A stretch of DNA of 64,000 bases from NCBI GenBank assembly GCA_050949565.1, contig JBMNFY010000017.1, positions 1,632,001 to 1,696,000 on the forward strand, written 5' to 3'. The notes under the pieces are model-generated. The model was given only the letters and a program-made list of their open reading frames with translations, ran no database searches and had not been told where the DNA came from. Positions 14,204 through 31,262 of the stretch are shown here, one piece after another (positions within the stretch are counted from its first letter, which is position 1; each line of letters starts with the position of its first letter). The stretch comes from Kiritimatiellia bacterium. GTDB lineage: Bacteria > Verrucomicrobiota > Kiritimatiellia > RFP12 > UBA1067. The position numbers and the translations under genes were made by a program.

Positions 14204-14291
14204 GAAAACCTCCTCGTGTGAAACGGCGTTCGGTAACTTCCGCCGAGCCCGAACGGGCGGCGGGAGACGAGAGATCCGTCACAGGGAGGTT

Positions 14292-14714: not shown

Positions 14715-14780
14715 AACGGCATAGTATCAACGCGCCGTTTCCCGTGCAATAGGGATTATGCGGGTTGCGCGTAATCGGGT

Positions 14781-14825
14781 GACAACTAAGGGACAGGTAT
14801 TTAGACGGCTGGTATTTAGACGGCT
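14781..14825. repeat. Isolated copy of the RAYT-island motif followed by a 15-bp tandem duplication
   Basis: GACAACTAAGGGACAGGTATTT (14781-14802); GGTATTTAGACGGCT x2 (14796-14825). Confidence 0.88.
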
Positions 14826-14969
14826 CACACCCCTGTCATCAACCGATTACGATTACGAAATTACGAAATGTGCTACCGTGGGGCTTGTTTCTATGGGCCG
14901 GGGTGTGTAAGCTATGTTGTGTCCTGTATGACCGGAATCGGTTTATACGCAACAACCTTGGAGGCTCCT

Positions 14970-16346
14970 ATGAAACGTTACTTGATGCCGTGTGTTCTTA
15001 TTGCTTGTGCCGCGCTCGCGTTGCGCGCTGAACCGTATAAGGCGGAGTGGGAGTCGCTCGACAAACGCCCGATTCCGCAGTGGTGGCAGGAGGCCAAGTT
15101 CGGCATCTTTATCCATTGGGGCGTTTACTCGGTACCGGCCTACGCGCCGACCGACGCGGCCAATGTCTACGCCAAGTATTCGGAGCACTACGACAACCGC
15201 ATGCGCTCCAACAACGCGGCCTTCACCAACTTCCATGCCCGCACCTACGGCACCAACGTCACCTATGCGGACTTCGCCACGCAGTTCCGCGCCGAGCACT
15301 TTGATCCTGTCCAGTGGGCCGATCTCTTCAAGAAGTCCGGTGCGCGGTATGTGGTGCTTACGTCGAAGCACCACGACGGCTTCGCGCTTTGGCCGAGCGC
15401 TTACAGCCCGCGCTGGAACGCGCAGGTGCTCGGACCGCACCGCGACCTTGCCGGCGAGCTGACTGCGGCGGTCAAGCAGGCCGGTTTGCGCATGGGCTTC
15501 TACTACTCGCTGCTCGAGTGGGGCAACCCGCTCTACAAGGAGAATATCGGCCGGTGGGTCGCGGAGATGAACCTGCCGCAGATGAAAGAGCTGGTCACGC
15601 GCTACGAGCCCGATATAGTCTGGGCCGACGGCGAGTGGGACTACTCCGACGAAGAGCTGCGCAGCGTCGATTTCTTGGCCTGGCTGTACAACGAATCGCC
15701 GGTCAAGGAGAGCGTGGTGGTCAATGACCGCTGGGGCAAAAAGACGCGCGGCAAGCATGGCGACCACTACACGACCGAATACGATCTGGTTCATTCGGGT
15801 AGCTCGCTTGATACCCAGTTCACGCATCCGTGGGAGGAGTGCCGCGGCATCGGCGGTTCGTTCGGCTTTAACCGTTTTGAGACCACCGCGCATTACATGA
15901 CCAGTGCACAGTGCGTGGAGACCTTGATCGAGAAGGTCAGTCGCGGCGGCAACCTGCTGCTCAATATCGGTCCGCAGGCCGACGGCCTCATCCCGGTGAT
16001 TATGGAAGAACGCCTGCTTGATATGGGGCGTTGGCTGAGCGTCAACGGCGAGGCGATTTACGGCACCACCGCCTGGCGGCACCGTCCCAAGAACATGCGC
16101 GAAACCAAGGTCTATTTCACTCAGAAACCGGATGCCCTCTATGTGATCTGCGCGCGCTGGCCGCAAGCGCCGCTGGTGGTCAACCACATCGCCAAGGCCG
16201 ACTCGGTTTCGCTGCTCGGCAGTCCTTTGCCGGTCACGTTCACGTGCAGCGACGGGGTGCTCACGATCAAACCGCCCGTGGTCAATCCCGGCACCCTGCC
16301 CTGCGAGTACGCCTGGACCTTCAAGATTGCTCGTCCGCAGGAGTGA
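14970..16346 (+). CDS. Alpha-L-fucosidase (GH29)
   Basis: 'WESLD..P.WWQEAKFGIFIHWGVYSVP', 'TSKHHDGF', 'VWADG', 'VVNDRWG', 'VSRGGNLLLNIGP'; signal peptide; GGAGG RBS. Confidence 0.95.
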   Translation: MKRYLMPCVLIACAALALRAEPYKAEWESLDKRPIPQWWQEAKFGIFIHWGVYSVPAYAPTDAANVYAKYSEHYDNRMRSNNAAFTNFHARTYGTNVTYADFATQFRAEHFDPVQWADLFKKSGARYVVLTSKHHDGFALWPSAYSPRWNAQVLGPHRDLAGELTAAVKQAGLRMGFYYSLLEWGNPLYKENIGRWVAEMNLPQMKELVTRYEPDIVWADGEWDYSDEELRSVDFLAWLYNESPVKESVVVNDRWGKKTRGKHGDHYTTEYDLVHSGSSLDTQFTHPWEECRGIGGSFGFNRFETTAHYMTSAQCVETLIEKVSRGGNLLLNIGPQADGLIPVIMEERLLDMGRWLSVNGEAIYGTTAWRHRPKNMRETKVYFTQKPDALYVICARWPQAPLVVNHIAKADSVSLLGSPLPVTFTCSDGVLTIKPPVVNPGTLPCEYAWTFKIARPQE

Positions 16347-16467
16347 GCGCCGTGTGGCACGGTCGAGGGGATTGCAGAGGATATGGGTGCCCGATTTCGG
16401 TTATTGTCGTCTGAACTTCAAACCGCTAAGATGACGGTGTTTGTGGATTGGTACGGGGTTAGACAAA

Positions 16468-17580
16468 ATGAGTACTTACCATCTTAATTCCTTTACAATC
16501 GGGGCATTCCGTGGGCTTCAAGGTATGACTTTTGAGCGGCTGGGGCGCTTCAACCTTTTGATCGGCGGCAACAATTCAGGTAAAACCTCGGTGCTTGAGG
16601 CCCTGCAAGCCTTTTGTAATCCGGAAGACCCGGCTGATTGGGCTAGAATAGCAAACGCCAGAAACACAAGTTCACGTTTGTTTTCGACCCATTCGTTGAA
16701 CGACTGTTTGGTGTGGATGTTCCCGCACACGAAACAAACGGATACTGGTAGCTCTGGTTCGATTCAGCTTTCCAGTACTGGGGCATGTCCTGTCCGAGAG
16801 GTCAAGGCAAGTGTTCAACCTGTCTTCGGTATGCCAGATGAAGAGGATCTTAGGTATTTGGCGAAACGACCCCTAGACTCTAATCCCGCAACAGGTGGAA
16901 CCTATGAGGGGATTGAGATCAAATTGGACTCTATACGTGCTCAGGACGGCTCGTCGACCGTTGCGGAGTCCGTTACCCGCCGTTTTTGGCAAGACGTCCC
17001 CTTTATTCGGAGACGCGCTAATTCATTCGCGTTTCCTGTGGCCGCAGTTTTGGGATTCGAATACCGTTTTGCTGAACGCTGCGCCGACAAGTATTCAAAG
17101 TTGAAGGTCGATCAACAAAAAGACCTTCTCGAACTTGCGCGAATGTTTGATTCCGGCATAGAGAGTATCAGTGTTGCGTCCGAAAACCGCCGACCTTACC
17201 TGAGGGTTGAACACAAGGATTTTGGCGAGGCGCCGCTCATGGTTTTTGGAGACGGCATGAAGCGTGTGCTTTTCATAGCGACGGGACTCGTTACAGCCAA
17301 AAATGGCCTCTTGCTTTTGGATGAGATCGAGAGCGGCATCCATGCGTTCGTTTTGCCGGAGATCATGAAATGGTTGTTCAAGGCGGCACGGGAGAACCAC
17401 ATTCAGATTTTTGCAACAACTCACAGCCTTGAGGCTGTAGATGCTGTGCTCTTATCTGCAAAAGAGACGCCCGATGAATTTGTCACGTACCGTCTGAGCA
17501 AAGAAGATCATCTCGCTAAACGGTTGAACTATAACCTGCTGACAGACCTTCGGGTTCATGGTGGCTTGGAGATCAGGTAA
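16468..17580 (+). CDS. ABC-type AAA ATPase (AAA_15/AAA_21-like), putative defence component
   Basis: 'FRGL..RFNLLIGGNNSGKTSVLEAL', signature FGDGMKR, LLLLDEIESGIH, QIFATTHSLE; visibly more AT-rich than its flanks. Confidence 0.85.
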   Translation: MSTYHLNSFTIGAFRGLQGMTFERLGRFNLLIGGNNSGKTSVLEALQAFCNPEDPADWARIANARNTSSRLFSTHSLNDCLVWMFPHTKQTDTGSSGSIQLSSTGACPVREVKASVQPVFGMPDEEDLRYLAKRPLDSNPATGGTYEGIEIKLDSIRAQDGSSTVAESVTRRFWQDVPFIRRRANSFAFPVAAVLGFEYRFAERCADKYSKLKVDQQKDLLELARMFDSGIESISVASENRRPYLRVEHKDFGEAPLMVFGDGMKRVLFIATGLVTAKNGLLLLDEIESGIHAFVLPEIMKWLFKAARENHIQIFATTHSLEAVDAVLLSAKETPDEFVTYRLSKEDHLAKRLNYNLLTDLRVHGGLEIR

Positions 17581-17583
17581 TCC

Positions 17584-18409
17584 ATGCGTGTCGATCTCAT
17601 CGCAGTTGAAGGTGCACACGACCTTGCTTTTGTTCAGAGACTACTCAGCGCTTTCGGTTTTGAACAGAAGAGAAAATTGGATAACCCGGAAAACCCCTCG
17701 GAAAACATCCCGTCCGAGGTTCGAGAGTTAGTTCCTAAGACATTCCCAACAAACGAAGAGCGTGATATCCACAAACGCTCTGACGTTCCTGCTTTCCATG
17801 TCAAAGACGAACAGTGTGTGGTTCTGATTTCTACTGGAGGTGACTCCAAGCTTGTTGGGGGGGGTGTCTTCTGCGATTGTAATTCTGGACAAAACTGATA
17901 TTCGCCCGTCATCGATTGGTTTCATTTTGGATGCAGACAGTAATCTGCCTAAGCAATTTGATAAACTGAAAACTGAGTGGGGCGAAAAAAGTAAAGACAA
18001 TGAATTACTCGGGACGTACTCGTTCCCTTCACATGTCGGCGTTTGTACCACAGGCACATGTCCGTTTGGCGTGTTCGTTATGCCCGACAATCAGAGCAGC
18101 GGCTCTTTAGAAACGCTCCTCCTGCAACGGGCGAAAGGTGTTTATCCAGTCCTGCATAAAAAGGCTGACGACTTTATTCAAGTCGTTAAGAACACCAAAG
18201 ACGCGATTCCGCCCGGATCAGAACTGGGCTCGAAGGGGCAAAATGAGGGCAAGGCCGTCCTCCACGCCATGACCAGTGTATTGAAACCTGGGAAGACCCT
18301 TCAGGCCAGTATCAGCGATAATGAATGGGTTCCTCAAGCCCCGGATCAATTTCCAGATTTTTTTCTACCACTTGTGAAGTGTCTCTCGCAACTTCTCGAT
18401 CTGAATTAG
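17584..18409 (+). pseudogene. TOPRIM-like / DUF3226-like protein split by a +1 frameshift at a G8 run
   Basis: VEGAHD in ORF 17584-17898; IGFILDAD and GVFVMPDNQSSGSLETLL in ORF 17840-18409; removing one G at 17857-17864 joins them (..KLVGGVSSAIVILD..). Confidence 0.72.
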
Positions 18410-18460
18410 AAAGGGAAGAAGAGTCCGGGCATCGAACAGAAATGATGAAAGGCGACCGCG

Positions 18461-19911
18461 ATGCAATTGGGATGGAGCAAAATCAAGCAGAGTATTGGAA
18501 GGGGTGCACGGGAAGAGGCCGGAGAGACAAGCTCGGGGGCCGAGTATGAGCGGGAGCCGGTTCCGGAGCACGCTTGGCTGGGGTTGAAAAGCTATGTGGG
18601 GCAGTTCGCGGGCGAGCATGTCGCCGGGACGGAGCTGATGATCGGGCCGCTCTTTCTCGCGGCGGGGGTCAGTGCGTTCGACTTTTTTGCTGGCCTGTTC
18701 GTCGGCAATCTGCTGGCCGTACTGAGCTGGACGCTTTTCACTGCGCCGATCGCCACGCGCGTGCGGCTGACGCTCTACTACCACCTCGAAAAGATCTGCG
18801 GCCGCAGACTGGTGGTGTTCTATAACATCGTCAACGGCGTGATGTTCACGGTTCAAGCCGGGGCGATGATCACGGTGTCGGCCACGGTGCTGGGGTCTTC
18901 TTCAAATTCCGCATGCCGGAGTTGAGCGACACCCTGCCGACCGGCTTCGGTTGGATTGTGGCGGTATTGGCGACCGGCGTGCTCTTTTCGATTGCGGCGG
19001 TGAAGGGCTACCGGGTCGTGGCTGCCTTCGCCAATCTGGTCGCACCGCTGATGGTCGTGATGTTCGTGGTCTTCGGCGTGATCGGTTTTCGCAAGATGGG
19101 CGTGACCGGACTCGACAACTTCTGGGAGATCGCTTCGACGCGCATCTGGATCGGCGGCGAACCGCAGCCGGGGCAGGTGAAGTTCACGTTCTGGCATGTG
19201 ATGTTTTTCTCCTGGTTCTGCAACATGGTCTGGCATATCGGCATGGCCGACCTCTCGCTTTTCCGCTTCGCCCGTAAATCGTGGTATGCGCTCTCTTCGG
19301 CGGCGGGGATGTACCTCGGCCACTTCATGGCGTGGATCGCAGCCTCGACCCTCTACGCGGTTCAGCTTCAGGCCGATCCGACCAATACCGCCGTGCTGCC
19401 CGGTCCGCTGGCTTACAACGCCTGCGGTGCGTTGGGCCTGCTGGTTGTCGTGATCGCCGGCTGGACCACGGCCAACCCCACGCTGTACCGCGCGGGTCTC
19501 GCTTTCCAGGCGCTGGTTCCCGAGGCATCGCGTGCCAAGGTTACGCTGATCACTGGACTCGCGGCCAGCGTCACCGCGATCTTCCCGGTCGTGATCATGA
19601 AGCTGATGGGATTCGTGGCGATGTGGGGCATGATCCTGATGCCGATGGGCGCGGTGATCTTCGCTGATTACTGGCTGTTGCCGCGTTTCGGCATGCGGCG
19701 GTTTATCGCCGAGCATGTGCGGTTACCGATGAATTGGGCGGCGGGCGCGGCCTGGCTGGCCAGCGTTGTCTTCAGCGTCGGACTGTTGGCGGCCTTCGGC
19801 GCGGACAAGATCTTCTTCGTCAGCTTTCCCAGTTGGTTCGTCGCGGTACTCGTCTATGTCGCGCTGAGCCGTTCCCTTCAGCGCTCCTGCCCATCTGATA
19901 TCAATGCCTAG
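18461..19911 (+). pseudogene. NCS1 (purine/cytosine permease-like) transporter with a -1 frameshift at a G4 run
   Basis: 'EYEREPVP','AGEHVAGTE','DLSLFRFA','GWTTANPTLYRAGLA'; adding one G at 18892-18895 gives ..LGVFFKFRMPE.. as one ORF; may be an assembly error. Confidence 0.72.
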
Positions 19912-19947
19912 GACGAAAGAAACGGAAGCGGACGATCCCACACACAG

Positions 19948-19998
19948 GGGAGGGACGAGCGTCTGCTCGTCCAGGGCAAGCAGACGCTTGCCCCTCCC
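19948..19998. repeat. REPIN-like inverted doublet
   Basis: GGGAGGGACGAGCGTCTGCTCGTCC-a-GGGCAAGCAGACGCTTGCCCCTCCC. Confidence 0.85.
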
Positions 19999-20066
19999 GC
20001 ATGTCCGTGCCAGCCTTATGGCCTTTTTCAGGTGAGATATAACCTCTAAACGGAGATAACACACTT

Positions 20067-20381
20067 ATGCACAGACACGCCTTTAAGATGAAACTCAAGC
20101 CCGGTACTATCGCCGAGTACAAACGCCGCCACGACGAGATCTGGCCTGAACTGGCCGAGGCGCTGAGCGCGGCAGGTATCTCCGACTACTCGATCTTTCT
20201 CGATGAGGAGAGCCTGACGCTCTTTGCCGTGCAGAAGCTCAGCGAGACAAACACCGCCGCTCAATTGCCGCAGACCGCGATCATGCAGAAGTGGTGGGCC
20301 TACATGGCGCCGTTGATGGAGGTCAACCCCGACAACTCCCCGGTTTGTACGGAGCTGCCGGAGATTTTCCACCTCGCGTGA
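20067..20381 (+). CDS. rhaM: L-rhamnose mutarotase
   Basis: 'AFKMKLKPG..EYKRRHDEIWPEL..AGISDYSIFLD..IMQKWWAYMA'. Confidence 0.95.
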   Translation: MHRHAFKMKLKPGTIAEYKRRHDEIWPELAEALSAAGISDYSIFLDEESLTLFAVQKLSETNTAAQLPQTAIMQKWWAYMAPLMEVNPDNSPVCTELPEIFHLA

Positions 20382-23300
20382 TCCGCAGCCAGACCCGTAG
20401 CAGTTCGGACACGCCCCACGCCTGTGCGCAACAACCGCGTGCCGCGTGCGGCGCGTCGCCATCGCAGATCTCCGGCGGATGCCCCAGACAGCCGCGGTTC
20501 AACTGTTCGATCGCCGACCCCAGCAGCGAGAGCCCGGTGGCGCGCGCGGAGTCGCCGTACAACTGAACCAGCGCCTCGACGTAGAGCGGGAAGGGCCAGC
20601 TCCACGCCGTGCCGTTGTGGTAGGCGGGTTTGCGCCGCGTGTCCTCGTCGCCCAGATAACGCCCTTGATAAGGCCGGTGCGGATCGTTCAGCAGGGTGCC
20701 GTTGTGCCAGACGGCGCAATCCGCCAAAACCGGTCGATCCGCCAAGCTGCGGATCGCGCCCGGCACCAGTAGCCGCTCGCACGCGCTGATCATCGTACGT
20801 GCCAGTTCGGGTGCCAGCGGCACGCCCAGCGTGAGTGCCAGCAGTTGGTTCGGGCGCAGCGTATCTTCCTGCAACGCCCGCTCGGCCGGTTCGCCAGCCT
20901 TGGCGCGCAGACAGTCCGCCAGCCACCCCTCCTTGACCACGTAGAGCCGCGCCAGCGCCGATGTCGCACGTTCGGCCAGCGCGTTCCATTCGGCGTCGAT
21001 CTTGCGTGCCACCAGCCGCAGGCTTGCGATCCAGAGCGCCTGAATCTCGACCGGATACCCTTCGCGCGGCGTGGCCGCCGGATAGTTGGTGTCCATCCAG
21101 GTGAAGTGCGACGGACTGTAGATCAGCCCGCTCGCCGGATCCATGTGGATGCCGTTGGGCGTACCGTCGCGATAGTACGTGAGGATCGACACCAGCACCT
21201 CGCGCAGCGTACGCGATCCGCAGGCCACATCAAGCACCTTGCGGTCGCCCATCGCCTCCATCAGGTCGCCGGCCGCCACGCAGAACCAGAGCGGCGCGTC
21301 AGAGGTGTCGCGGTTGCCCACCGTGTTGCCGTGGATGATATTCGGCAATGTGCCGCGTTCTTCAAAGCGACCGAACTCGCGCAGGATTTCCAGCGCGTCA
21401 TCGTGCCGGCCGTCGGCGATCAGCCCGCGCAGCACGATCAGCGTGTCGCGCCCCCAATCCAGAAACCACGGATATCCCGCGATCACGGTCTTCAGCGCAT
21501 CGCGCCGCACCACGTAGAGCGACAGTGCCTGCGACAGCGTTTCCGGTATCGTCGCCAGCGCACCCGTCGGCGTTGCATGTTGGGCGTTGAATGTTGCGGA
21601 TTGCGGATTGCGGATTGCGGATTGCGAGTTGTCCCCCGCCTTAAGCGTGATCTCGCCGCCGTCATCCAGGAGCAGATCGAACCAGCCGGGACTGAAAAGA
21701 TCGCTGTGTCCGTCAAGCCCGCGCTCCTGCTCTTCGGGATGCGCCACCATATACGCCCACGACGGCTCGATGTGGAATGCTCCCGCTGTGGCTTCGATGC
21801 CCAGCCGCATACCGTCGGTCGGCTCGAAAGTAAATCCGCGCGCCAAGGGATGCACCGCCGCCGGCCACTCATGCTCCGGCCCCATAAAAGCTTTGGTCTT
21901 GTGGTGGAAGCTGCGCCACTCGATGTCCGGACGCACGATCACCTTGACCGGTTCGTCGGCTTCCAACAACCCGGCCTGCGCCGCATCCAATCCACACGCG
22001 CCGACCGCCGGTCGCGACACGCGCAGCCGCGCGCGGTTGACGCCCGGCTCCAATTCGAGCCGGAAGCGCAGCGGCACCCAGCGTCCGATGCCGCACGGCA
22101 CCTTGAAGCACCACTCGGCGAAGCGTCCCGCCGGATCAGTCGTGAAGGCGTCGAGGCAGGCCGCCTCGATTGCATGCGAATAGCCGCGATAGCGCAGCCA
22201 AGTGCGGCAGCGCGTCCAGAAAATCATCTTGTCGGCCGGCACCCGCGGATCGGGATTGACGGCGAGCAGGCAGTCGTACTGGCTGCGCACTTCGCCCCAC
22301 GCGGCACGCGCCTGCGCCATCGCGCCTGCGCTGTTCGAGAGCACGGTACAGAAGTCCGGCTCATTGCGCACACGTACGCCGCTGACACGCGATACCGCCC
22401 GCGCCGCACCGGCGGGCGGCAGCACCAGCAGGTCGGAGACGGCGCGTTGCACGCCTGCGTCGGTGAAGACCGTCATCACCAGCGAGCGCTGTTCGGCGCG
22501 TGTGCCGTCCAACGCCGCGTCGTACGGTGGCACGATCAGGAACGCGCCCCATGTGCTGTCGTCCAGCCGCACCGCGCGCTCGCGTGCCTGCGTGTACCGT
22601 CCGCTCTTCAACTCGGCGCGGAAGGGCGCATCGGCCCGCGCCAGCAACACATGGCCTTCGGGCAGCATCACCTGCCGACGCTGATCCTCGGGCCAATACC
22701 ACACCGTGCGGCGCGGCAGTTGGTTCGGCGCGTCGGCGCAGAAGGCATCGGGATCAGCCGTCATGGCCGCGCCCAGCTCATCAGGCTCGCAGGTGCAGGC
22801 AAAGCGTTCGTCATCGTCGCCGTTGTCTACCGCCGCGAGGTGCAACTTCACCCGCAACGCCATGAGATTCCGCCGGCGGCGCGACAGCGCGGCCGGTTCG
22901 ACGACCGCCGCCGCTGCGGCGTCGACCGCCGCGACATCTTCTGCGCACAGCGTCAGGCAGCAGGCGCGTCCCGGTGCAAGCGCGAGACCCGCGCCGGGCG
23001 TGAGTGCAAAGGCTTCGCCGGTGACGAGATCCCACGCCTTCGTTCCGTGAAAGGCCGCCTCGTCCCAGTGCGCCGTCTGCGGGTGCGCGCAATCGAGATT
23101 GACCAGCACCAATAACGCGCTTCCGTTGGCCGCTGCATCTGTGTCGATGTCGCGCAGCACCGCCAAGAACGGCCCGTCGCCGCGCTGCACCGGCCGCAGG
23201 CGCGTACCGGGGCCGAAGGCCGGATGCGTTTCCAGCAGGGCGTTCAGGCGCGCGATCTCCGCCACTTGATTGTGCGGCGCGTCCCAGTTGAGCGCCGAGG

Positions 23301-24690
23301 CGCCGTGTACGTCCACCTTCTCCGTGGCGAACCACTCGACGCCCGCCGTGATGCCGAACGCGCCTTGGTGCGAGAGCAGAGCCGACAGCGCCACGCGCAT
23401 ACGGGCATAACATTCGCCGCGCGCGGCCAGGCGGTTGTTGTCGTGCGTCTCGGCGAAGTGGATCAGCGGGCCGCAGCGTTCCGCCAGCGGGATCGCGCGC
23501 GGCAGGTACCAGTCGAATGCGCCGCGATCTTCGGTCTGGAACAATTCGGAGTAGGCCCAGTCCAGATTGGCTACGGTGAGCAACTCTTCGGTCACCTCGA
23601 CCTTGCCGCCCAGCCCTTCCAGCATGAAGATGGTGTCGGGGAACTCTTTGCGCACACGGGCCACGATATAGGTCCAAGTCTCGACCGGGATCATGTAGCC
23701 GGCATCGCAGCGGAAACCGTCCACGCCTTGGCTGCACCAGAAGAGAAACACCTTGGCCATGTAGGCGCGCAATCGTGGGTCGCTGTAATCCAACTCCACC
23801 AAGTCGGCCCAGGTCACGCCCCACGCGCCCGGCGAGATGAACTCGCCGTCGGGTCTACGCCGGAACCAGTCCGGGTGGTGGGTATGGAGCGTCGCGGCCC
23901 AGCCGGTGTGGTTGGCGGGCAGATCCATAAAGAGACTGCCGCCGCGACTGTGTACGGCATCGATCAGCTCGCGGAATTGATCGAGCGGCGTGGCGTACGT
24001 ATCGAACTCCGCCAGCGCGGGATCGACCGAAAAGAAATCGAGCGCCGCGAAGGCCGACCCGTAGCGGCCCATGCGCGCGTAGGTGGTCGGCACCGGATGC
24101 ACCGGCAGAAGCTGCAGGATGCGGAAACGCTGGCGCCCCATGATGGTGTCGAGCTGGCGGATAAGATCGCGGAACGTTCCCGATGGCGGGATGACGGTGT
24201 AGCCTTGCCGGTCGAGCGCGGCCTCGTGTTCCCTGAGTTCCGGCGTGCTCGGGTTGCGATGCCGTGCCGCGCCGAACTGGCGCACGAAGGCGGTGTACAT
24301 GGTATTGGCGCAGGCGGTGTGGGCGGGGCCGACCTTGATGCGCAGGTTGTCGCCCGCCGGCCACTCCGGCACCGACGAGCCCTCGGCAAAGAAACAGGCC
24401 TTGCCCTCAAAGATGCCGACTTCGGTCAACGGCACACGCACGCGGAACACGCCCGGCGCTTCCTCGCGCATCGGGATATCGTGCCAGTCGCGTGCCAGCA
24501 CCGGCTCGCCCGATTCAGTGCTGGCGATCAACTCGCGGCGTCGCACGCGCGCCATGCCGAGGTTGGTGCGGAAGACGGCGCGTCCCGGCCGGGGCCGGTC
24601 GAGCCGCAGTGTCACTTCAAAGAGATCTCCGGCCCATTTCAAATGAGGCGTGTCGGCTGATGGGGTCTGTTGCATAGTGGTGTACAGCAT
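20323..24690 (-). CDS. Fused glycogen-debranching enzyme: GH13 amylase-like domain + amylo-alpha-1,6-glucosidase (GDE_N/GDE_C)
   Basis: GH13 motifs DLPANHTG, GVDGFRCDAG, ETHDN; GDE_C motifs IAGYPWFLDWGRDT, FTWMDT, AYHNGTAW, QAWGVSE. Confidence 0.9.
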   Translation of the reverse strand: MLYTTMQQTPSADTPHLKWAGDLFEVTLRLDRPRPGRAVFRTNLGMARVRRRELIASTESGEPVLARDWHDIPMREEAPGVFRVRVPLTEVGIFEGKACFFAEGSSVPEWPAGDNLRIKVGPAHTACANTMYTAFVRQFGAARHRNPSTPELREHEAALDRQGYTVIPPSGTFRDLIRQLDTIMGRQRFRILQLLPVHPVPTTYARMGRYGSAFAALDFFSVDPALAEFDTYATPLDQFRELIDAVHSRGGSLFMDLPANHTGWAATLHTHHPDWFRRRPDGEFISPGAWGVTWADLVELDYSDPRLRAYMAKVFLFWCSQGVDGFRCDAGYMIPVETWTYIVARVRKEFPDTIFMLEGLGGKVEVTEELLTVANLDWAYSELFQTEDRGAFDWYLPRAIPLAERCGPLIHFAETHDNNRLAARGECYARMRVALSALLSHQGAFGITAGVEWFATEKVDVHGASALNWDAPHNQVAEIARLNALLETHPAFGPGTRLRPVQRGDGPFLAVLRDIDTDAAANGSALLVLVNLDCAHPQTAHWDEAAFHGTKAWDLVTGEAFALTPGAGLALAPGRACCLTLCAEDVAAVDAAAAAVVEPAALSRRRRNLMALRVKLHLAAVDNGDDDERFACTCEPDELGAAMTADPDAFCADAPNQLPRRTVWYWPEDQRRQVMLPEGHVLLARADAPFRAELKSGRYTQARERAVRLDDSTWGAFLIVPPYDAALDGTRAEQRSLVMTVFTDAGVQRAVSDLLVLPPAGAARAVSRVSGVRVRNEPDFCTVLSNSAGAMAQARAAWGEVRSQYDCLLAVNPDPRVPADKMIFWTRCRTWLRYRGYSHAIEAACLDAFTTDPAGRFAEWCFKVPCGIGRWVPLRFRLELEPGVNRARLRVSRPAVGACGLDAAQAGLLEADEPVKVIVRPDIEWRSFHHKTKAFMGPEHEWPAAVHPLARGFTFEPTDGMRLGIEATAGAFHIEPSWAYMVAHPEEQERGLDGHSDLFSPGWFDLLLDDGGEITLKAGDNSQSAIRNPQSATFNAQHATPTGALATIPETLSQALSLYVVRRDALKTVIAGYPWFLDWGRDTLIVLRGLIADGRHDDALEILREFGRFEERGTLPNIIHGNTVGNRDTSDAPLWFCVAAGDLMEAMGDRKVLDVACGSRTLREVLVSILTYYRDGTPNGIHMDPASGLIYSPSHFTWMDTNYPAATPREGYPVEIQALWIASLRLVARKIDAEWNALAERATSALARLYVVKEGWLADCLRAKAGEPAERALQEDTLRPNQLLALTLGVPLAPELARTMISACERLLVPGAIRSLADRPVLADCAVWHNGTLLNDPHRPYQGRYLGDEDTRRKPAYHNGTAWSWPFPLYVEALVQLYGDSARATGLSLLGSAIEQLNRGCLGHPPEICDGDAPHAARGCCAQAWGVSELLRVWLRITRGGKSPAAPYKPGSCRG

Positions 24691-24756
24691 AGCCGAACAC
24701 GCAGCGGAAGGCTATGCGATTCCGGAGTGAGGTTTTTTGAGACGGTGATGTCCCCG

Positions 24757-24785
24757 TTGACAACACTACGCCAATGGCGTACACT
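24757..24785 (+). promoter_or_regulatory. Sigma70 promoter with overlapping palindromic operator (higBA)
   Basis: TTGACA-17 bp-TACACT; palindrome TACGCCA-A-TGGCGTA at 24767-24781. Confidence 0.8.
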
Positions 24786-24791
24786 TTTCGC

Positions 24792-25115
24792 ATGGTAATT
24801 GTGGAGACCAGCGTGTTCACTCGCCGTATCGGAAGCTGCATGTCCGACGAGGAATATCGGGCGTTGCAGATGTTTCTTGTCGGGAACCCCTGTGCAGGAA
24901 GTGTTATTCCGGGCGGCGGAGGCCTGAGAAAATTACGCTGGTCAAGTTCAGGAAGAGGTAAACGCGGTGGGACGCGCATCATTTACTACTGGTGGGTTCC
25001 AGAAACGCTATTCATGCTGTTTCCATACCGTAAGAATGAGACAGAAGACTTAACAACGAACCAGGTACGACAGCTTAAAGCGGTCGTCGAGGAGTGGCTT
25101 CATGAAGAAAAATGA
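24792..25115 (+). CDS. higB: RelE/HigB-family toxin
   Basis: 'IVETSVF..DEEYRALQ..NP.AG.VIPGGGGLRKLRW..GKRGGTRIIYY..Y.KNE.EDL'; toxin-first order. Confidence 0.9.
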   Translation: MVIVETSVFTRRIGSCMSDEEYRALQMFLVGNPCAGSVIPGGGGLRKLRWSSSGRGKRGGTRIIYYWWVPETLFMLFPYRKNETEDLTTNQVRQLKAVVEEWLHEEK

Positions 25116-25392
25116 TTTTAACGAGTTGCTCGCTAGTGTCAAAGAGGCGGGAAGCATCAAGAAGGGCGAAAAGCCTGCAAGCCGCCGCTTTGAGTTTTCG
25201 CCACCCGACATCAAGAAGGTGCGGCGGTCGCTGAACGTCACTCAAGAGGTGTTCTCGCGCATGATCGGTGTGAGCGTTGGCACCCTTCAGAACTGGGAGC
25301 AGGGGCGGCGAGAGCCGGAAGGTCCCGCGCGGGCACTCCTCACTGTGGCCGCAAAGAATCCGCAAGCCGTACTATCCGCCCTTCACGAATAA
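25102..25392 (+). CDS. higA: XRE-family HTH antitoxin (HigA-like)
   Basis: 'FNELLASVKEA','LNVTQEVFSRMIGVSVGTLQNWEQGRREPEGPARALL'. Confidence 0.9.
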   Translation: MKKNDFNELLASVKEAGSIKKGEKPASRRFEFSPPDIKKVRRSLNVTQEVFSRMIGVSVGTLQNWEQGRREPEGPARALLTVAAKNPQAVLSALHE

Positions 25393-25417
25393 ACGCATAA
25401 CCGCAGTCAGTTGGTGA

Positions 25418-25478
25418 CAGTGCGGCGGCGAGTGGTATTCCGCGCGCCGCCGCTTTGGAAGCACAAGTGTGGTGGCGA
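25418..25478. repeat. Truncated copy of the REPIN at 5825-5946
   Basis: cagtgcggcggcgagtggtattccgcgcgccgccgcttt..agtgtggtggc matches the first half of the 5825 element. Confidence 0.75.
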
Positions 25479-25492
25479 GGCGGCGTGTCCCC

Positions 25493-25515
25493 AAATTACC
25501 TGTCCCTTAGTTGTC
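25493..25515. repeat. RAYT-island motif
   Basis: AAATTACCTGTCCCTTAGTTGTC. Confidence 0.9.
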
Positions 25516-25581
25516 CCGCAGGGCACTGGGACTGGACCGGCCTTGCCGGGTGGGGCAGCGCACCCGGCGCTTATTCCAATT

Positions 25582-25914
25582 CTACGCCTTGCTTCCCCAT
25601 ATGGCTTTGACGTATTCGTTTGATTCGGCATATGGACCGTACAGCGTTTCGCGGAGACCTCTTGGTGCCTTCTTGTCACAAGACGTCCATTCCACAAAAA
25701 CCAACCGATATGGTTTCAGACTTGTGGTATCTACAACGATCCCTGTGGCAATGATACGCCCGCCAGTCTTGAGTGCGATACCATCGCCCTTTTTGATCTG
25801 TTCGAGACGACCTTGAGTCGTTTCCGCATTCGCAAACCAGATTCCATGTTTGCGGCACAATTCATGAACAGGCCGGTTGTCCACCTTGGCGTGGGCGATC
25901 CAATACTGAGTCAT
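25582..25914 (-). CDS. Hypothetical protein, possibly EVE/PUA-like fold
   Basis: 110 aa; 'YWI..IKKGDGIALK..IIATGIV' pattern; start abuts the upstream stop. Confidence 0.6.
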   Translation of the reverse strand: MTQYWIAHAKVDNRPVHELCRKHGIWFANAETTQGRLEQIKKGDGIALKTGGRIIATGIVVDTTSLKPYRLVFVEWTSCDKKAPRGLRETLYGPYAESNEYVKAIWGSKA

Positions 25915-26411
25915 TACTCGGCCCAGCCTTTCTCTGTTTTCGACAGCGACATAGATGAGTTGAATCCAAGTGTTTTTTCTTTATATCCAGCCTCGGAAAA
26001 GCCGTGCGCATTTGCAATTCCTTCTGCTATTTCAGGAGGCAACATTTTTCCATCCTTCTTCCAGCCGTAATCCCCTTTGACTTTGGAATCGTTGGGGACA
26101 GGGGCCGCGCTAAACCGACCTCCGGAGCCTCCGAACACAGCCATTGCTCGGCGGTCCCACATACAATCATCTGTGAAGGTGATTTCGTACGTGAAATCCA
26201 TCTCGTAGAATTTCTCCCCGGTCATCGGCACCTTCTTCATTGCCCCGTTTGTCTTCTGAAACGCGGTCAACTTGTTCAAGCCCTTTGACTGTGACTGAAT
26301 CTTCGATTCGAGTATCTTCTTCGCATCGATCTCCGAAGGTTTTCCCGAACAACCTGTGAGAACCAGTGCACTTGTTAGTACCAGCAACAAAGATCTGATT
26401 CCGTTCATCAC
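25914..26411 (-). CDS. Hypothetical lipoprotein
   Basis: Signal peptide with LTGC lipobox; GGAG RBS; AT-richer codon usage. Confidence 0.7.
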   Translation of the reverse strand: MMNGIRSLLLVLTSALVLTGCSGKPSEIDAKKILESKIQSQSKGLNKLTAFQKTNGAMKKVPMTGEKFYEMDFTYEITFTDDCMWDRRAMAVFGGSGGRFSAAPVPNDSKVKGDYGWKKDGKMLPPEIAEGIANAHGFSEAGYKEKTLGFNSSMSLSKTEKGWAE

Positions 26412-26653
26412 TCATCTCCCAACCGCTTCTGCGTTTTTTAGTATCGGACCGTGCGGTTTACGGCTCCGACAGTGGATAAGATAATGCGTTTGATCTGTTA
26501 CGCACGCATGGTGCATACCATTCAGTCGCGTTCGGATTGCCGACACGACTTCTTCCGCTCATTGTCGCTTGTTCATGTTGATCCTTTCTCCGGTCGACGC
26601 TAAGACACGAAGCGTTGTGCGACCGATATTGCCAACGCCATTTAATAAGTGAA

Positions 26654-26845
26654 TTACTGTTTTTTTATGAGCAACAGTTTTGAAATCAAGTAAACGCCAA
26701 CAGCCGTCAATATAATGCCGAACCCGCCATCATCGAAGCGATATAAGTTCATTCCTTCAACTTCACTCAAATTTTGCTTAATGGTCAAAGCAACGATTAC
26801 CGCGCCCGCAAGACTTGCAATTGCGTAATGAACGGATTCCTTCAT
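26654..26845 (-). CDS. Small two-TM hypothetical protein
   Basis: 63 aa with two hydrophobic segments; AAAGGG upstream of ATG. Confidence 0.5.
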   Translation of the reverse strand: MKESVHYAIASLAGAVIVALTIKQNLSEVEGMNLYRFDDGGFGIILTAVGVYLISKLLLIKKQ

Positions 26846-27085
26846 AGTGTGCCCTTTCTATGACAATGACATGTTCTCACAGTAGTGAAATCACTACCAT
26901 CCCACAGGGTAAACCGGCAACTCACCGGCTCCCATGGTTGGCACGCATTGTGCGGGGGGGGGGTAAAAGTCAACCCAAAACTTTCTAACTTTCTACCCAG
27001 AACGCCACCCACATTACCAACAGATTTTTTTGGGGGCAGGGCTGGCCGCAAGTCGCAAGTCGCGGGTCGCGAGTCAACCTTCGTA

Positions 27086-27262
27086 GACAACTAAGGGACA
27101 GGTATTTTGAACCAAAAGGTTGTGTTTCCGATCACCGGTTTTAAGGTTCGATTCAAACGCTTTTATCTCTGATCCTCTGCTCATATGATTCTCTCACCCA
27201 ACGTTGCTCCTCACCAAACACCGCCTACCCTCCGGAGTTTTTAAAATACCTGTCCCTTAGTT
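27086..27262. mobile_element. MITE/REPIN-like unit bounded by inverted copies of the RAYT-island motif
   Basis: AACTAAGGGACAGGTATTTT (27089-27108) ... AAAATACCTGTCCCTTAGTT (27243-27262), perfect 20-bp inverted ends. Confidence 0.7.
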
Positions 27263-27321
27263 AGTAGTTAGTTAGTAGTTAGTTCAGTTGGTTGTCCGTT
27301 AGTTTTTGTGGGAAATGTTTG

Positions 27322-27364
27322 TTGACACCCATTCCATACTTTTCGATCATGCTTCCATACTTTT
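27322..27364 (+). promoter_or_regulatory. Promoter/operator of the abrB-vapC module
   Basis: TTGACA at 27322; direct repeat TTCCATACTTTT at 27332-27343 and 27353-27364; GGAGG RBS. Confidence 0.6.
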
Positions 27365-27375
27365 GGAGGTGAAGT

Positions 27376-27600
27376 GTGTTGACTGCGACCGTTGCTGAAC
27401 GAGGGCAAGTGACGATTCCCAAGGCCTTGCGTGACCGTTTGGGTATCAAGCCGGCGACCGTGTTGGCGTTCAGTGTGAAAAATGGCGTTCTGACGGCTGT
27501 GAAAGTCGTGCCGAATGATCCCGTGGCCGATGTCACGGGATGTCTGGGGGCGGACAGGCGTACGGATGAATGGGTGGCTGAACTGCGAGGCGCACCGTGA
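27376..27600 (+). CDS. AbrB/MazE/SpoVT-family antitoxin (VapB-like)
   Basis: 'ATVAERGQVTIPKALRDRLGIKPATVL'. Confidence 0.9.
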   Translation: MLTATVAERGQVTIPKALRDRLGIKPATVLAFSVKNGVLTAVKVVPNDPVADVTGCLGADRRTDEWVAELRGAP

Positions 27601-27783
27601 TCACCGCTGTCGACACGAATGTGCTGTAACAAGACGCCGCGCAGTGATCGAGTGATCGCCGATTTTTTGGTCGCGGCTCATGCGGCCGAGTGCGCAGACC
27701 GTTTGTTGACGCGTGATCGCGGATTCTACCGCACACACTTCAAAGGGCTCTCCCTTGTCGATCCACTGCGTTTGAGCGACTAA
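27597..27783 (+). pseudogene. vapC: PIN-domain VapC toxin remnant with internal deletion
   Basis: GTG start overlaps the antitoxin stop; MITAVDTNVL* then, in another frame, RVIADFLVAAHA..ADRLLTRDRGFYRTHF..*. Confidence 0.85.
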
Positions 27784-27800
27784 ATATCTGCCCCTTAGTC
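27781..27800. repeat. Degenerate RAYT-island motif
   Basis: TAAATATCTGCCCCTTAGTC, overlapping the vapC stop codon. Confidence 0.7.
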
Positions 27801-27837
27801 GTGGTTCCGGTTGTGGTCTGCCGCACCGCCACTGCTA

Positions 27838-28848
27838 CTATGCGCAAGGAAGCTGAACCGGCGCGATGCGGAGCGCGCGTGCCGTCCGCAACTCGCCCCA
27901 TTCGGCGAAACGCATCCTGCGCGCGCCGTCCTTGCGCTTCGGGCCGAAGAGCCGCCGGTTCTGTTCGAACACCCCGTCGACAAACGCCCTGCTGCCCAAT
28001 GCCATCCCGTCCGTGAAGTAGCGTACCCGGCAGTGCAGCACCTGCGGGAGCGTCAGCCTCCCGCCCTCATCGAGCACGTGCGCCACCTCCGCCGCACTGA
28101 ACCCGGGCCGGACGACCTGCCCGCTCTCCTCGACCGCGCGCCGTTCCTCCCCGGCTACGTAGAGCAGCTCACGGCAACTCTTCTGAACCTGCCGCCACTC
28201 GCCAACCCCCGCGCCGTGGACCGCCGCCAGTCCTTCACGCGCCAGTCTGCCGCCCGCGCATGCCTCGCCGTAGCCGCCCCAGCGGTAATCCTTGGGATCC
28301 ACGACAATCCCCGCGCGCACCGGGTTCAGGTCGATATACGCCGCCACCGCCGCCAGCGCCCCCATGGCGCCCTCGATCAGCACGCTTTTGAAGCGGTCTT
28401 CCCAAAGCGTCCCTTTGCGCCCGTGGCGGCCGTTGTAGGACATGCTGTAGCGTTGCTTGAGCGTCTTCACGAACGCGCTCAGGTCGTACATCCGCGCCCG
28501 CAGCCGCTCCTGCTGCTCCTCGACCAAGTGCGCCAGCCCCATCCGCCGCCACTCCGCCCACTGCCGCTGGACGCCCGCGACATGCTTCTTGCCGTAGAGC
28601 AGCGTCATGCGCCGTACCAGTTCAGCCTCGTCCACCTCAGTCCGCTCACCCACCTCGACCAGCAGGTGGAAGTGGTTCGACATCACTGCATAGGTTAGTA
28701 CCCGCACCCCGCAGAACGCCTCCGCGCGCCGCATGATCCCGCGGAAAATCTCTTTCTCCACATCATCCATCTTGAACGCCCGATCCACGATCCGGCTCAC
28801 CACGTGGTAATACCCCGTACCCTCAGCCTTCACCCTCGCCTGCCGCAT
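27838..28848 (-). mobile_element. HUH Y1 transposase, REP-associated tyrosine transposase (RAYT)-type with C-terminal extension
   Basis: MRQAR..YYHVVSR, HUH motif NHFHLL, GTLWEDRFKS, catalytic Tyr in AYIDLNPVRAG, DYRW; AAGGAGG RBS before ATG 28848. Confidence 0.9.
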
Positions 28849-29077
28849 GCCTTCCTCCTTCCCGTTCGAACCCCATACCCACATCCGCTCCCATCGGAGC
28901 CTCGCCCTGCCCGTCCGGCCGCGCACCCCCCAAAAAGCTCTCTCAGACAAAAACGTCCGAAAAGCACCGTCAAAAAAACACGCTTCCATTCCCAGAAGCA
29001 CCTCGGCGCTGCCCCGAGCACAGAACACCGTACACTTTACCACCTTCCGCATCTGAGCTACAAGCCTCATTTCTACT

Positions 29078-29225
29078 AAATACCTGTCCCTTAGTTGCAG
29101 AAGAGCCGCCGGTTCCGTTCGAACTCCCCGTCGACAAACGCCTTGCCGCCCAAGCACCATCCCGTCCGTGAAGTAGCGCACTCGGCAGCGCAACACCTAG
29201 TTACAAAATACCTGTCCCTTAGTTG
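29078..29225. repeat. Two identical 20-bp direct repeats enclosing a RAYT gene fragment
   Basis: AAATACCTGTCCCTTAGTTG at 29078-29097 and 29206-29225; 29100-29198 aligns to 27946-28043. Confidence 0.92.
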
Positions 29226-29318
29226 AAATTGTCGAGACTTGGCAAGATGAAACCAAGTACGTATACTGGTGCTCTTACTGTCTGGATTAGCCATTCTGTA
29301 AGCCGATACGACACAACC

Positions 29319-30203
29319 ATGACCTTTTTCGAAAAACTTCAGAGCGGTCACCCGACCATTTCGTTTGAATTCTTTCCGCCCAAGACGCCGGAAGGCTGGG
29401 CGCGGCTGTATGCGACGCTGGCCGAAACCGCACGTCTGAACGTGGATTTGGTCTCGGTGACTTACGGTGCTGGCGGCAGTACGCGCGAAAACACCGTGGA
29501 CTTGGTGGCGTCGTTGCAGAACAATCTGGGGTTGCACGCCATGGCGCATCTCACTTGCCTCGGCCATTCGCAGGTGGATCTCTCCAGAATCCTCGACCGG
29601 CTGGCGGAAAAGAACGTGCCGGCCATCATGGCTCTGCGCGGCGACCCGCCGCAGGGGGAGAGCAGTTTCCGCCCGCATCCGTATGGATTCGCCTATGCCA
29701 GCGACCTGATTGGCTTCATCCGTGATGGCTGGCCGCAGTTCAAGATCGGTTGCGCCGCCTACCCAGAGGGCCACCCAGAATCTTTTGCGGAGGGCCAGCC
29801 GCGTTCGCCGGCGCGCGACATCACCTTCTTGAAGCGCAAGCAGGAGAACGGCGCGGACTTTGCGGTCACACAGCTCTTTTTCAGTAACTCGGCTTACCAT
29901 GACTTTGTTGCGCAAGCTCGTGATGCGGGGGTCACGATCCCGCTGCTGCCCGGCATCATGCCGCTGAGTTCGGCCAAGCAGATCGAACGCTTTGTCGAGC
30001 TTTCCGGTTGCTCGATCCCGGACGCCCTGCGGCAGGCGGCCGCCGCCGAGGATGTCGAAGAGGCCGGTTTCTGTTTTGCGCTCGATCAATGTCGCGACCT
30101 GCTGGCGCATGGTGCGCCGGGCATCCATCTCTACACACTCAATCAGTCCTCGCTCTCCGGCCGTATCTTCGCTGCGCTGCGTGCGGAAAATGCCGGTTTG
30201 TAA
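29319..30203 (+). CDS. metF: Methylenetetrahydrofolate reductase
   Basis: 'ISFEFFPPKT','SVTYGAGGST','AHLTC','ALRGDPP','AAYPEGHPE','TQLFF','GIHLYTLN'. Confidence 0.96.
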   Translation: MTFFEKLQSGHPTISFEFFPPKTPEGWARLYATLAETARLNVDLVSVTYGAGGSTRENTVDLVASLQNNLGLHAMAHLTCLGHSQVDLSRILDRLAEKNVPAIMALRGDPPQGESSFRPHPYGFAYASDLIGFIRDGWPQFKIGCAAYPEGHPESFAEGQPRSPARDITFLKRKQENGADFAVTQLFFSNSAYHDFVAQARDAGVTIPLLPGIMPLSSAKQIERFVELSGCSIPDALRQAAAAEDVEEAGFCFALDQCRDLLAHGAPGIHLYTLNQSSLSGRIFAALRAENAGL

Positions 30204-30275
30204 AAAATTGTGTGCGTCACGATGTGCGTGATGTGGTAACCTCGTGGAAAACTCTTCAGCAACAGGGTATTGTGC

Positions 30276-31262
30276 ATGCGTGTTGTCTTTATGGGATCTT
30301 CGGACGCGTCGGCGGTCACCTTGCGCGCGCTGCTGCGCGCGCCGCAGGTGAACGTGGTCGGCGTCGTGACCCAGCCGGACCGTCCTTCGGGCCGGCGGCA
30401 ACGCTTCACACCCTGTCCCTGCAAGGCGTTCGCGGTTGAGAGGCAAGTCGAGCCGATCATCACGCCCGAGAAGGTCAATGCGCCCGAAGTCTTGGAGCAA
30501 CTCGAGCAACTCAAGCCTGACGTGATCGTTGTGGTCGCCTTCGGCCAGTTCCTTGGCCGACGGTTGCTGGCGTTGCCGCCGCACGGCTGCATCAACGGCC
30601 ACTTCTCGCTGTTGCCCAAGTATCGGGGCGCCGCGCCGGTTCAGGCGGCCATCGCTTCGGGCGACGAGGTCACCGGCGTAACCGTTATGCAGATGGCGGA
30701 GGGCATGGATGACGGCGACATTCTGCTCAAGGCCATCGAGCCGATCTGCTCGGACGATACTGCGGTCACCCTGATGGAGCGCCTCGCGATCCTCAGCGCC
30801 GTCACGATCGTTAAGGCACTGCGCTTGATGATCGCTGGTACGTTGCCGCGCGAACCGCAGGACCACTCGCAAGCGACCTACGCCCCAAAGATGCGCAAGG
30901 CCGACGGCCAGATCGACTGGTCGTTCCCGGCCAGACTCATCGAACGGTGCACCCGCGCTTTCGAGCCATGGCCCGGTGCGTTCACGTTCTTGCCAGTACG
31001 TATCGACAAGACGGGTGCGCCGGAGCGCATCAAGATCTTGCAGGCGGAGATGGTGAGTAATGAGGAGGTGCCCGGGTTTGAGCAGGCTGCGCCCGGCACG
31101 GTCTGTCTGCTCTCACCGACTGGCCCGGTCGTTGCCACCGGCAACGGCCTGTTGCGTCTGACGGCATTGCAGCCCGACGGCAGCCGCCGCATGGACGGGA
31201 AATCCTTTTTGAACGGCCACCCCATGGAGCCGGGTGACCGCTTTTGTAGTGTGCCGCTGTGA
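30276..31262 (+). CDS. fmt: Methionyl-tRNA formyltransferase
   Basis: 'MRVVFMGS','VVTQPDRP','VVAFGQ','INGHFSLLPKYRGAAPVQ','ATYAPK..IDW'. Confidence 0.96.
   Translation: MRVVFMGSSDASAVTLRALLRAPQVNVVGVVTQPDRPSGRRQRFTPCPCKAFAVERQVEPIITPEKVNAPEVLEQLEQLKPDVIVVVAFGQFLGRRLLALPPHGCINGHFSLLPKYRGAAPVQAAIASGDEVTGVTVMQMAEGMDDGDILLKAIEPICSDDTAVTLMERLAILSAVTIVKALRLMIAGTLPREPQDHSQATYAPKMRKADGQIDWSFPARLIERCTRAFEPWPGAFTFLPVRIDKTGAPERIKILQAEMVSNEEVPGFEQAAPGTVCLLSPTGPVVATGNGLLRLTALQPDGSRRMDGKSFLNGHPMEPGDRFCSVPL

Follow-up and report, generated by a model that had tools for sequence, protein, structure and literature searches.

The subject of this analysis is a stretch of 64,000 nucleotides from the genome of a Kiritimatiellia bacterium (hereafter, the window; C17:1632001-1696000 of the source assembly G000, which comprises 4.66 Mb in 21 contigs), and in particular a RAYT-type nuclease gene that lies there among copies of a short repeat. 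Gene and repeats are located between GDE (minus strand) and metF (plus strand), which Pfam identifies as GDE and MTHFR, respectively. In G005 and G003, two genomes of the same genus, the starts of these flanking genes are about 50 bp apart, and therefore the region 24691-29318 that separates them in the window is an insertion. By this comparison the interval is a true island, made up of apparently foreign or accessory modules. An earlier reading of the letters of this DNA (the original prediction) had singled out the GDE-metF interval for such a comparison and had described it as a row of modules partitioned by a 20-bp repeat: a higBA pair, three AT-richer orphan open reading frames (ORFs), an abrB-vapC pair, the nuclease gene and a fragment of another such gene. 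That order agrees with the Pfam assignments, the PIN remnant scoring below the Pfam cut-off. The features are listed below, with the strand in brackets where there is one.

24691..29318: 4.6-kb island between the starts of GDE (-) and metF (+), from the comparison with G005 and G003
24774..25115 (+): higB/RelE-family toxin gene (Pfam RelE, 1.5e-7), with a promoter-like site at 24757-24785
25102..25392 (+): higA-type antitoxin gene with a helix-turn-helix (HTH) domain (Pfam HTH_3, 6e-9)
25494..25513 (+): repeat copy with one mismatch (motif search)
25582..26845 (-): three AT-richer orphan ORFs of 110, 165 and 63 amino acids (aa), no Pfam family
27021..27081: separate multi-copy repeat of about 60 nt (TTTTTTGGGGG… cgcaagt words), adjoining the next copy of the motif
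27088..27107 (-): exact repeat copy (motif search)
27244..27263 (+): repeat copy with one mismatch; a tagttagt micro-repeat and the promoter-like site of abrB come next
27376..27600 (+): AbrB/MazE-type antitoxin gene (Pfam MazE_antitoxin, 6.6e-8)
27601..27783 (+): vapC (PIN) remnant with an internal deletion (PIN E 0.0078, under the Pfam cut-off)
27782..27801 (+): degenerate repeat copy with three mismatches, directly 3' of the RAYT stop codon, kept in G002
27838..28848 (-): intact RAYT/TIRYT-type HUH-Y1 nuclease gene, 336 aa (Pfam Y1_Tnp, 5.8e-11)
29078..29097 (+): exact repeat copy, 230 nt upstream of the RAYT start and antisense to the gene
29098..29196 (-): fragment of a second, older RAYT copy, between two repeat copies (88.9% identity over 99 nt to the intact gene)
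29206..29225 (+): exact repeat copy at the metF-side border of the island
14783..14802 (-): solitary exact repeat copy outside the island, preceded by a truncated 5' half-copy (motif search)

As proposed originally, the product of the gene at 27838..28848 is a predicted RAYT-fold HUH/Y1 nuclease. The signatures H59-F-H61 (HFH) and Y171-I-D-L-N175-P are both present, and an alignment of 34 homologues shows no variation at H59, H61, Y171 or N175; the same alignment reveals a conserved block, RCRVRYF.DG..LGS, in the C-terminal third of the protein. The nearest NCBIfam model is NF047646 (REP_Tyr_transpos), with a score of 58.6 bits that lies under its cut-off of 80, and NF033573 (IS200) scores 16.7, under its cut-off of 55. 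In the Protein Data Bank, the best match of the AlphaFold2 model (pLDDT 87.3) is TnpA-REP of Escherichia coli (4er8_A; Foldseek E 2e-5, TMt 0.73), with which the VIA comparison gives a Z of 16.7 and a root-mean-square deviation of 2.5 over 160 of 165 residues; the transposases of IS608 and ISDra2 rank next. The gene has a G+C content of 67%, and relative to its orthologue in G002, the closest relative (97% aa identity), the ratio of nonsynonymous to synonymous substitution rates (dN/dS) is 0.17; by this measure, purifying selection acts on the gene. Besides a single full copy, the genome contains the relic at 29098..29196, which had been recognised correctly as a RAYT fragment, and a paralogue with 27% identity on C8. 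We also considered the Y1 gene at C4:29775-30254 as a member of the family, and rejected it because it is decayed, with the tyrosine region gone, and belongs to a different subfamily (35% identity over 66 aa). This decayed Y1_Tnp gene (160 aa, HUH kept) stands in another motif cluster, C4:29172-30254 (L038:7173-8255), where it adjoins a DUF6036 nucleotidyltransferase pair. RNA contigs of one metatranscriptome span 24799-26644 and 27484-28931; because they could be DNA carry-over, we make no claim of expression.

The repeat was scored as the 20-nt motif AAATACCTGTCCCTTAGTTG at no more than three mismatches, in the window and in the whole genome. Seven copies are present in the window, none being expected (0 matches in 100 shuffles), and the positions predicted for them were right to within 1-2 nt. 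The TGTCCCC half-sites that had been said to bracket higBA fared differently: the window contains five against 8.1 expected, and 90 of 100 shuffles contained at least five. The half-site at 24749 has no support, and that at 25486, next to a full copy, perhaps arose from it by partial duplication. Throughout the genome there are 70 copies, of which 11 are exact and 20, 27 and 12 have one, two and three mismatches, respectively. The conserved stretch measures about 24-25 nt, (C)GTCTAAATACCTGTCCCTTAGTTG, beyond which conservation stops, and its core is GGGACAGG, of the GGGGWSAS class. The prediction that the motif is not a self-complementary repetitive extragenic palindrome (REP) is borne out, and a hairpin or REP reading was rejected: the minimum free energy (MFE) calculated for the consensus as DNA is 0.0 on either strand, and the mean over the 70 copies is -0.93 compared with -1.37 in shuffled sequences. 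A search of Rfam with window 14000-31000 gave no match to a known RNA at E<=0.1.

The distribution of the 70 copies is non-random with respect to genes, as the genome-wide count suggested by the original prediction now reveals. Genes were mapped with a rough caller, by which 87% of the genome is coding. Of the copies, 54 fall between genes and 10 touch ORF edges; five are placed in small ORFs or in doubtful long-start extensions, and one is in the final codons of an ORF. The GTTG end of the repeat points to the 3' end of a gene in 44 of the 70 copies; no more than 40 nt separate it from a 3' end in 22 of the 70, versus 3 for 5' ends. The copies are clustered, with 29 adjacent pairs (that is, pairs within 6 kb) compared with 5.8 for random placement (maximum 15 in 2000 trials). 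Twenty-five of these pairs are direct and four are inverted, a number of direct pairs that was reached in 0 of 20000 orientation shuffles. Flanking sequences are common to three direct pairs only, including the adjacent pair C4:28669/28692. A replication-strand bias like that of IS200/IS605 was rejected, as our own count for the first 1.6 Mb of C17, a region of one skew sign, gives 12 plus and 12 minus copies. The cumulative GC skew of C17 is minimal at about 1.60-1.65 Mb, and the window starts at 1.632 Mb; this may indicate an origin or terminus of replication within the window or close to it.

Partial and composite copies were inspected as well. Most partial copies of 9 nt are due to chance, and a fixed cleavage point was rejected, as the informative partial copies are too few (approximately nine) and break at consensus positions too scattered (10-18) to define one. 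Eight copies (C1:41493, C1:242698, C6:55326, C11:11519, C17:227000, C17:1207321, C17:1480100 and C17:1732787) have a common 3' extension of 55-105 nt that ends in a GC-rich hairpin repeat (…GTGGCACGGGCATCTTGCCCGTG…), and are thus composites with a second, palindromic repeat family. Near-tandem words of 6-8 nt (for example, cgcaagt cgcaagt cgcgggt cgcgagt; gatccc gatagc gatccc; ttgagcg ttgaacg ttgagag) are found beside many motif copies and at junctions of insertions and deletions between G000 and the related genome G004, with tracts at window 27045-27075, C8:215000-215060, L148:2975-3040 and other motif flanks.

Comparison with relatives supports the view that the repeat, a non-palindromic motif of the GGG(A/T)CA type, is cognate to the nuclease, and that gene and repeat belong together. 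The motif is present 85-300 nt upstream of the gene, in antisense orientation, at 7 of 12 loci of relatives. The copy at 29078 occupies this conserved position, and G002 resembles the window in having a degenerate copy after the stop codon, too. We examined 47 of 80 loci of a wider set of homologues from metagenome-assembled genomes of Verrucomicrobia, Kiritimatiellia, Lentisphaeraceae, Akkermansiaceae and others. In 18 of the 47, a core of the GGGACAGG type (at most 4 mismatches in 17) is found 64-190 nt upstream in the same orientation, compared with about 0.1 by chance according to our own estimate, and it can be detected down to about 45% protein identity. Lineages have their own versions of the repeat; thus, G007 and G010 have the variant TCTGT (…CCCTCTGT) beside their genes, and in these two genomes and in G001 the motif is nearly limited to the flanks of the gene. 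In other relatives the homologues are multi-copy, with 52 matches in G032 and 34 in G038. The repeated units in five multi-copy genomes measure 1.1-1.5 kb and contain the nuclease as their sole gene, and those of G032 and of L084/L086 end in inverted copies of the lineage's own repeat (AGGGACAGGTTAT… and …ATAACCTGTCCCT in L084/L086). Homologous loci had been expected to have their own GGG(A/T)CA-type motif and variable cargo: the first expectation is supported by the 18 upstream cores, but the second is not, since the units are devoid of cargo. Nor are toxin-antitoxin (TA) modules, which had been proposed to stabilise the array, characteristic of the family: no TA-family match was detected among the ORFs of at least 60 aa beside seven close homologues, whose neighbours are mutually unrelated.

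These properties place the locus among systems already described. Di Nocera et al. (2013; PMC3733652) gave the name TIRtrons to RAYT-like genes flanked by long inverted repeats, and TIRYTs to the encoded proteins; the terminal inverted repeats (TIRs) have in common a GGGGWSAS motif at a similar distance from the genes, moderately abundant TIR families occur as singles, dimers or groups, and the authors asked for in-vitro tests. According to Quentin et al. (2018; PMC6006769), the TIRYTs correspond to their subclass 2.1, the same as RAYT group 1 of Bertels et al. (2017; PMC5581495). In their account, subclass 2.1 is characterised by long proteins, a Y---NP motif, a C-terminal domain and the lack of REP hairpins, class 1 has Y----Q as its Y motif, and subclass 2.1.2 has a C-terminal HTH domain (Bac_DnaA_C, HTH_23 or HTH_28).

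The element in the window is probably of the TIRtron/TIRYT type and similar to subclass 2.1 of Quentin et al., judging from sequence features. Like TIRtrons, it has a low-copy RAYT-like HUH/Y1 gene with the Y---NP signature, encoding a long protein with a C-terminal extension, and long non-REP repeats with a GGGGWSAS-type core at a set distance upstream; AGGGACAG fits that consensus, taken from PMC3733652, at 7 of 8 positions, and GGGGACAG of the relative L105 at 8 of 8. In both cases the repeat is also dispersed and moderately abundant, in singles, pairs and groups. The inverted-repeat feature of TIRtrons is represented by the copies 29078(+) and 27088(-), which surround the gene and match at 20 of 20 positions, the latter being the sole inverted partner of the former, and by the clean inverted ends in relatives. 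Unlike in TIRtrons, the copies nearest to the gene here are direct and dispersed neighbours are co-oriented; moreover, copies adjoin the 3' ends of genes and lie at the edges of accessory genes and of differences between strains, the C-terminal part of the nuclease yielded no DnaA_C or HTH family, and the host belongs to Kiritimatiellia/Verrucomicrobiota. With the REP/REPIN-RAYT systems and BIMEs the locus has in common a single-copy, domesticated-looking Y1 gene flanked by its own dispersed extragenic repeat, and with E. coli TnpA-REP and its REPtron the same fold and intergenic mosaics of several repeats; however, it has no palindrome, no GTAG tag and no inverted doublets (4 of 29 pairs are inverted). 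The IS200/IS605 elements IS608 and ISDra2 are alike in their HUH/Y1 core, and in that homologues are multi-copy in some relatives, but the window element has no subterminal hairpins, has Y---NP, is present in one copy and lacks a replichore strand bias. Integron arrays also have short sites of one orientation that separate small accessory genes (TA genes and orphans), many of them carrying promoters, with a site 3' of many genes and single modules present or absent between strains. In contrast to attC sites, the copies here are not imperfect palindromes; they are scattered genome-wide, and core genes are bracketed too. Pfam found no IntI or other integrase family among the island ORFs. The locus is a member of a described class and not the new integron-like capture system that the original prediction had envisaged, and that the enzyme itself captures genes seems doubtful.

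Differences between strains show what the repeat copies border. G002 also has the island, although its contig ends within it; the order there is metF, two motif copies 14 nt apart, in place of the relic that stands between copies in the window, the RAYT gene, a degenerate copy and a truncated vapC (vapC'), followed by an abrB cut at its 5' side by a pair of copies and by a second abrB-vapC' cut by another copy. Truncated pieces of abrB, vapC and RAYT have motif copies at their borders in both G000 and G002, in keeping with the idea that copies fall at module borders. The higB gene and the three orphan ORFs, which at 41-51% G+C are indeed AT-richer than the window (60%), have no DNA match in the five genomes of the genus that were compared using window 24691-27840; the other matches of that segment are 67 nt inside higA, short multi-copy repeats and paralogous abrB-vapC genes. 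The 165-aa orphan has only weak, sub-threshold lipoprotein matches at its N-terminus. The vapC remnant has lost its middle part, as the paralogous abrB-vapC at C8:~215100-215900 and its counterpart in G004 have about 240 nt more there; the match in G004 was considered as a moved module and rejected, being instead a paralogue common to both genomes. The repeat of about 60 nt (…TTTTTTGGGGGCAGGG…, then cgcaagt/cgcgggt words) has at least 15 matches in G004, with 88-98% identity.

Elsewhere in the genome, the clusters of copies hold a HigA-like antidote gene, nucleotidyltransferases, HsdS and HsdR fragments, an Eco57I-like gene, an XhoI system, MazE, a DDE transposase and orphans. Core genes (a leuA-like gene and those for aspartate kinase and homoserine dehydrogenase) are bracketed as well, and other sites are simply intergenic. 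The XhoI-family endonuclease gene is split into two overlapping ORFs (L050:1440-2173; C1:241439-242172), likely by a frameshift, and adjoins its methylase, with two motif copies directly upstream. G004, in an assembly that is 78% complete, is mostly 95-99% identical to G000 over matched stretches. When 20 G004 loci were mapped on G000, one was fully colinear, and in five the match stopped no more than 6 nt from a motif end. In one case, G000 has an ADP-ribosylglycohydrolase gene between two motifs where G004 has a single motif. In another, G004 has an extra motif and a 204-aa ORF beside secY, and the break falls inside the motif. G004 also has a 4-kb insert with DUF4276 and AAA_15/AAA_21 ATPase genes (L057:6440-8348, G004:C81) that is absent from G000; this defence-like pair lies between the orphan gene on the secY side and secY. 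Finally, a 1-kb module with a 236-aa orphan is found at C17:9367 in G000, but at a site next to C17:530057 in G004, between two direct copies, and at the same site as in G004 in G002, between a degenerate partial and a full copy; near C17:530057, G000 is empty and motif-free. A conserved promoter-like element of about 45 nt (GTTGACGG…TACGAT…) precedes different small orphan genes at C17:9367-9410, C17:10485-10545 and L179:1340-1400. Most differences between G000 and G004 are untidy replacements with no readable target duplication, and the search for clean filled and empty pairs defining a minimal mobile unit yielded a candidate that we rejected, a 125-nt insertion in G004 that has the motif at just one of its ends. 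New observations here are that neighbouring copies are co-oriented and that copies are placed at the 3' ends of genes and at strain-specific borders.

The island is also found in metagenomes. Of its sampled words, 96-99% are present in each of at least 14 DNA runs (2016-2025) of digester, bioreactor and wastewater origin, and contigs of three runs from different studies (2016, 2019 and 2025) match it with 0-4 differences. These contigs contain no joints or alternative forms of the island, although contigs can hide rare forms; the excised circles or empty junctions that might betray an active array did not appear among them. Metagenome contigs break only at the multi-copy 60-nt repeat, where the summed contig depth (bin 27015-27195) is 180-460 versus 17-38 alongside; rows of contigs with two repeats were considered as junctions and rejected, since they stem from other genomic loci that carry two repeats. 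In these contigs the island was stable from 2016 to 2025. The micro-repeat tagttagttagtagttagtt at window 27257-27285, after the copy at 27244, is 11 nt shorter in a contig of the 2016 run X12.

The account that we favour, with moderate confidence, is that the locus is a TIRtron-type unit, consisting of the nuclease gene and its cognate repeat of about 24 nt, within an accessory island, and that the nuclease acts on the repeat. According to this account, the enzyme would recognise the repeat, cut it and rejoin it, which would spread copies and make each of them a preferred point of breakage and joining. DNA beside or between co-oriented copies could thereby be gained, lost or moved, the joins being made by the enzyme itself or by host recombination. 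The island may then be viewed as a patchwork around the enzyme's home site, made up of higBA, three putatively foreign orphans, the decayed abrB-vapC, the gene and the relic of an older copy. Several observations weigh against this account. The repeat forms no hairpin by which it could be recognised, residues 197-336 of the protein have no Pfam match at E<=10, the fold searches being filled by the catalytic core, and the informative partial copies break at scattered positions. The pair 29078/27088 also encloses the abrB-vapC remnant, and the copies nearest to the gene (27782 and 29078) are direct, not inverted. The remaining breaks between G004 and G000 lie 13-370 nt from the motif, many insertions and deletions being 30-370 nt away from it, among other repeat families, and the relocated 1-kb module is flanked by no motif in G000. 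In addition, G004 has 42 copies but no RAYT match, in an incomplete assembly from which the metF locus is missing too.

Some of these observations would be explained if the repeats were passive, that is, remnants of an old burst, or hitch-hikers from it, that pile up in permissive DNA of recent acquisition, the enzyme having been domesticated for another task and the rearrangements being due to host recombination, slippage or independent insertions. The untidy replacements, the many breaks at a distance from the motif, the stability of the island over years and the near-limitation of the motif to the flanks of the gene in G007, G010 and G001 are in line with such passivity, as is the make-up of the junctions, where three or more other repeat families and low-complexity word repeats are combined in a mosaic. 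We nevertheless find it unlikely, given the breaks close to motif ends in a quarter of the mapped loci, the strong co-orientation despite common flanks in just three pairs, and the purifying selection on a gene with intact catalytic residues. Furthermore, 24 nt is short for homologous recombination.

Another reading is that of dedicated cassette capture, in which the nuclease would cut the same strand of two co-oriented copies and release a circle, with one copy and the cargo, that re-inserts elsewhere. Integron-like accessory arrays would thus be driven by an HUH enzyme instead of a tyrosine or serine recombinase, the GDE-metF island would be the home array, and its cassettes, seen in different states in sister genomes, would include the motif-bracketed ADP-ribosylglycohydrolase gene, the RAYT relic and the orphan modules. 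The bias toward direct pairs and toward nearby gene 3' ends would be expected from such a process, and the cargo-like genes in the clusters (TA, restriction-modification, nucleotidyltransferase and orphan genes) would suit it, as would the gene present between two motifs in G000 where G004 has a single motif, the 1-kb module between direct copies in another context, and the relic boxed by two copies where G002 has 14 nt. Yet the units of homologues in the multi-copy genomes carry the nuclease alone, core genes are bracketed, the overall polarity of the copies is just 44 of 70, and both the G000 site that is empty of the G004/G002 insertion and the site of the module in G000 lack the motif. The absence of TA families beside close homologues and of joined or alternative forms in the three runs, where rare ones may hide, speaks against capture as well. 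Co-orientation and the placement at 3' ends and strain borders keep the cassette idea alive, as a distinctly improbable one. That the motif is instead a regulatory or protein-binding site unrelated to DNA mobility, such as an operator for the gene or a 3'-end element of transcription units, is very improbable: throughout the family it keeps the same place and orientation upstream of the gene, in G032 the left repeat, as read from the alignment, includes the -35 of a promoter-like site and many copies directly follow stop codons, but it has neither a hairpin or terminator shape nor an Rfam match, inverted copies bound the multi-copy units, and presence/absence differences and breakpoints coincide with copies.

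In summary, we know of no biochemical test of any TIRYT, and the lineage described here provides unusually good material for asking what TIRYTs do and why their repeats have spread in only some genomes. It combines one intact gene under selection with 70 non-palindromic copies, and its sister genomes, at 97-99% identity, differ exactly at copies, including whole genes that are present or absent between two of them. If it is true that the enzyme makes the joins, this would constitute a new way in which single genes are moved. Otherwise, the repeats still mark hot spots of accessory-gene turnover in the Verrucomicrobiota/Kiritimatiellia of anaerobic digesters.

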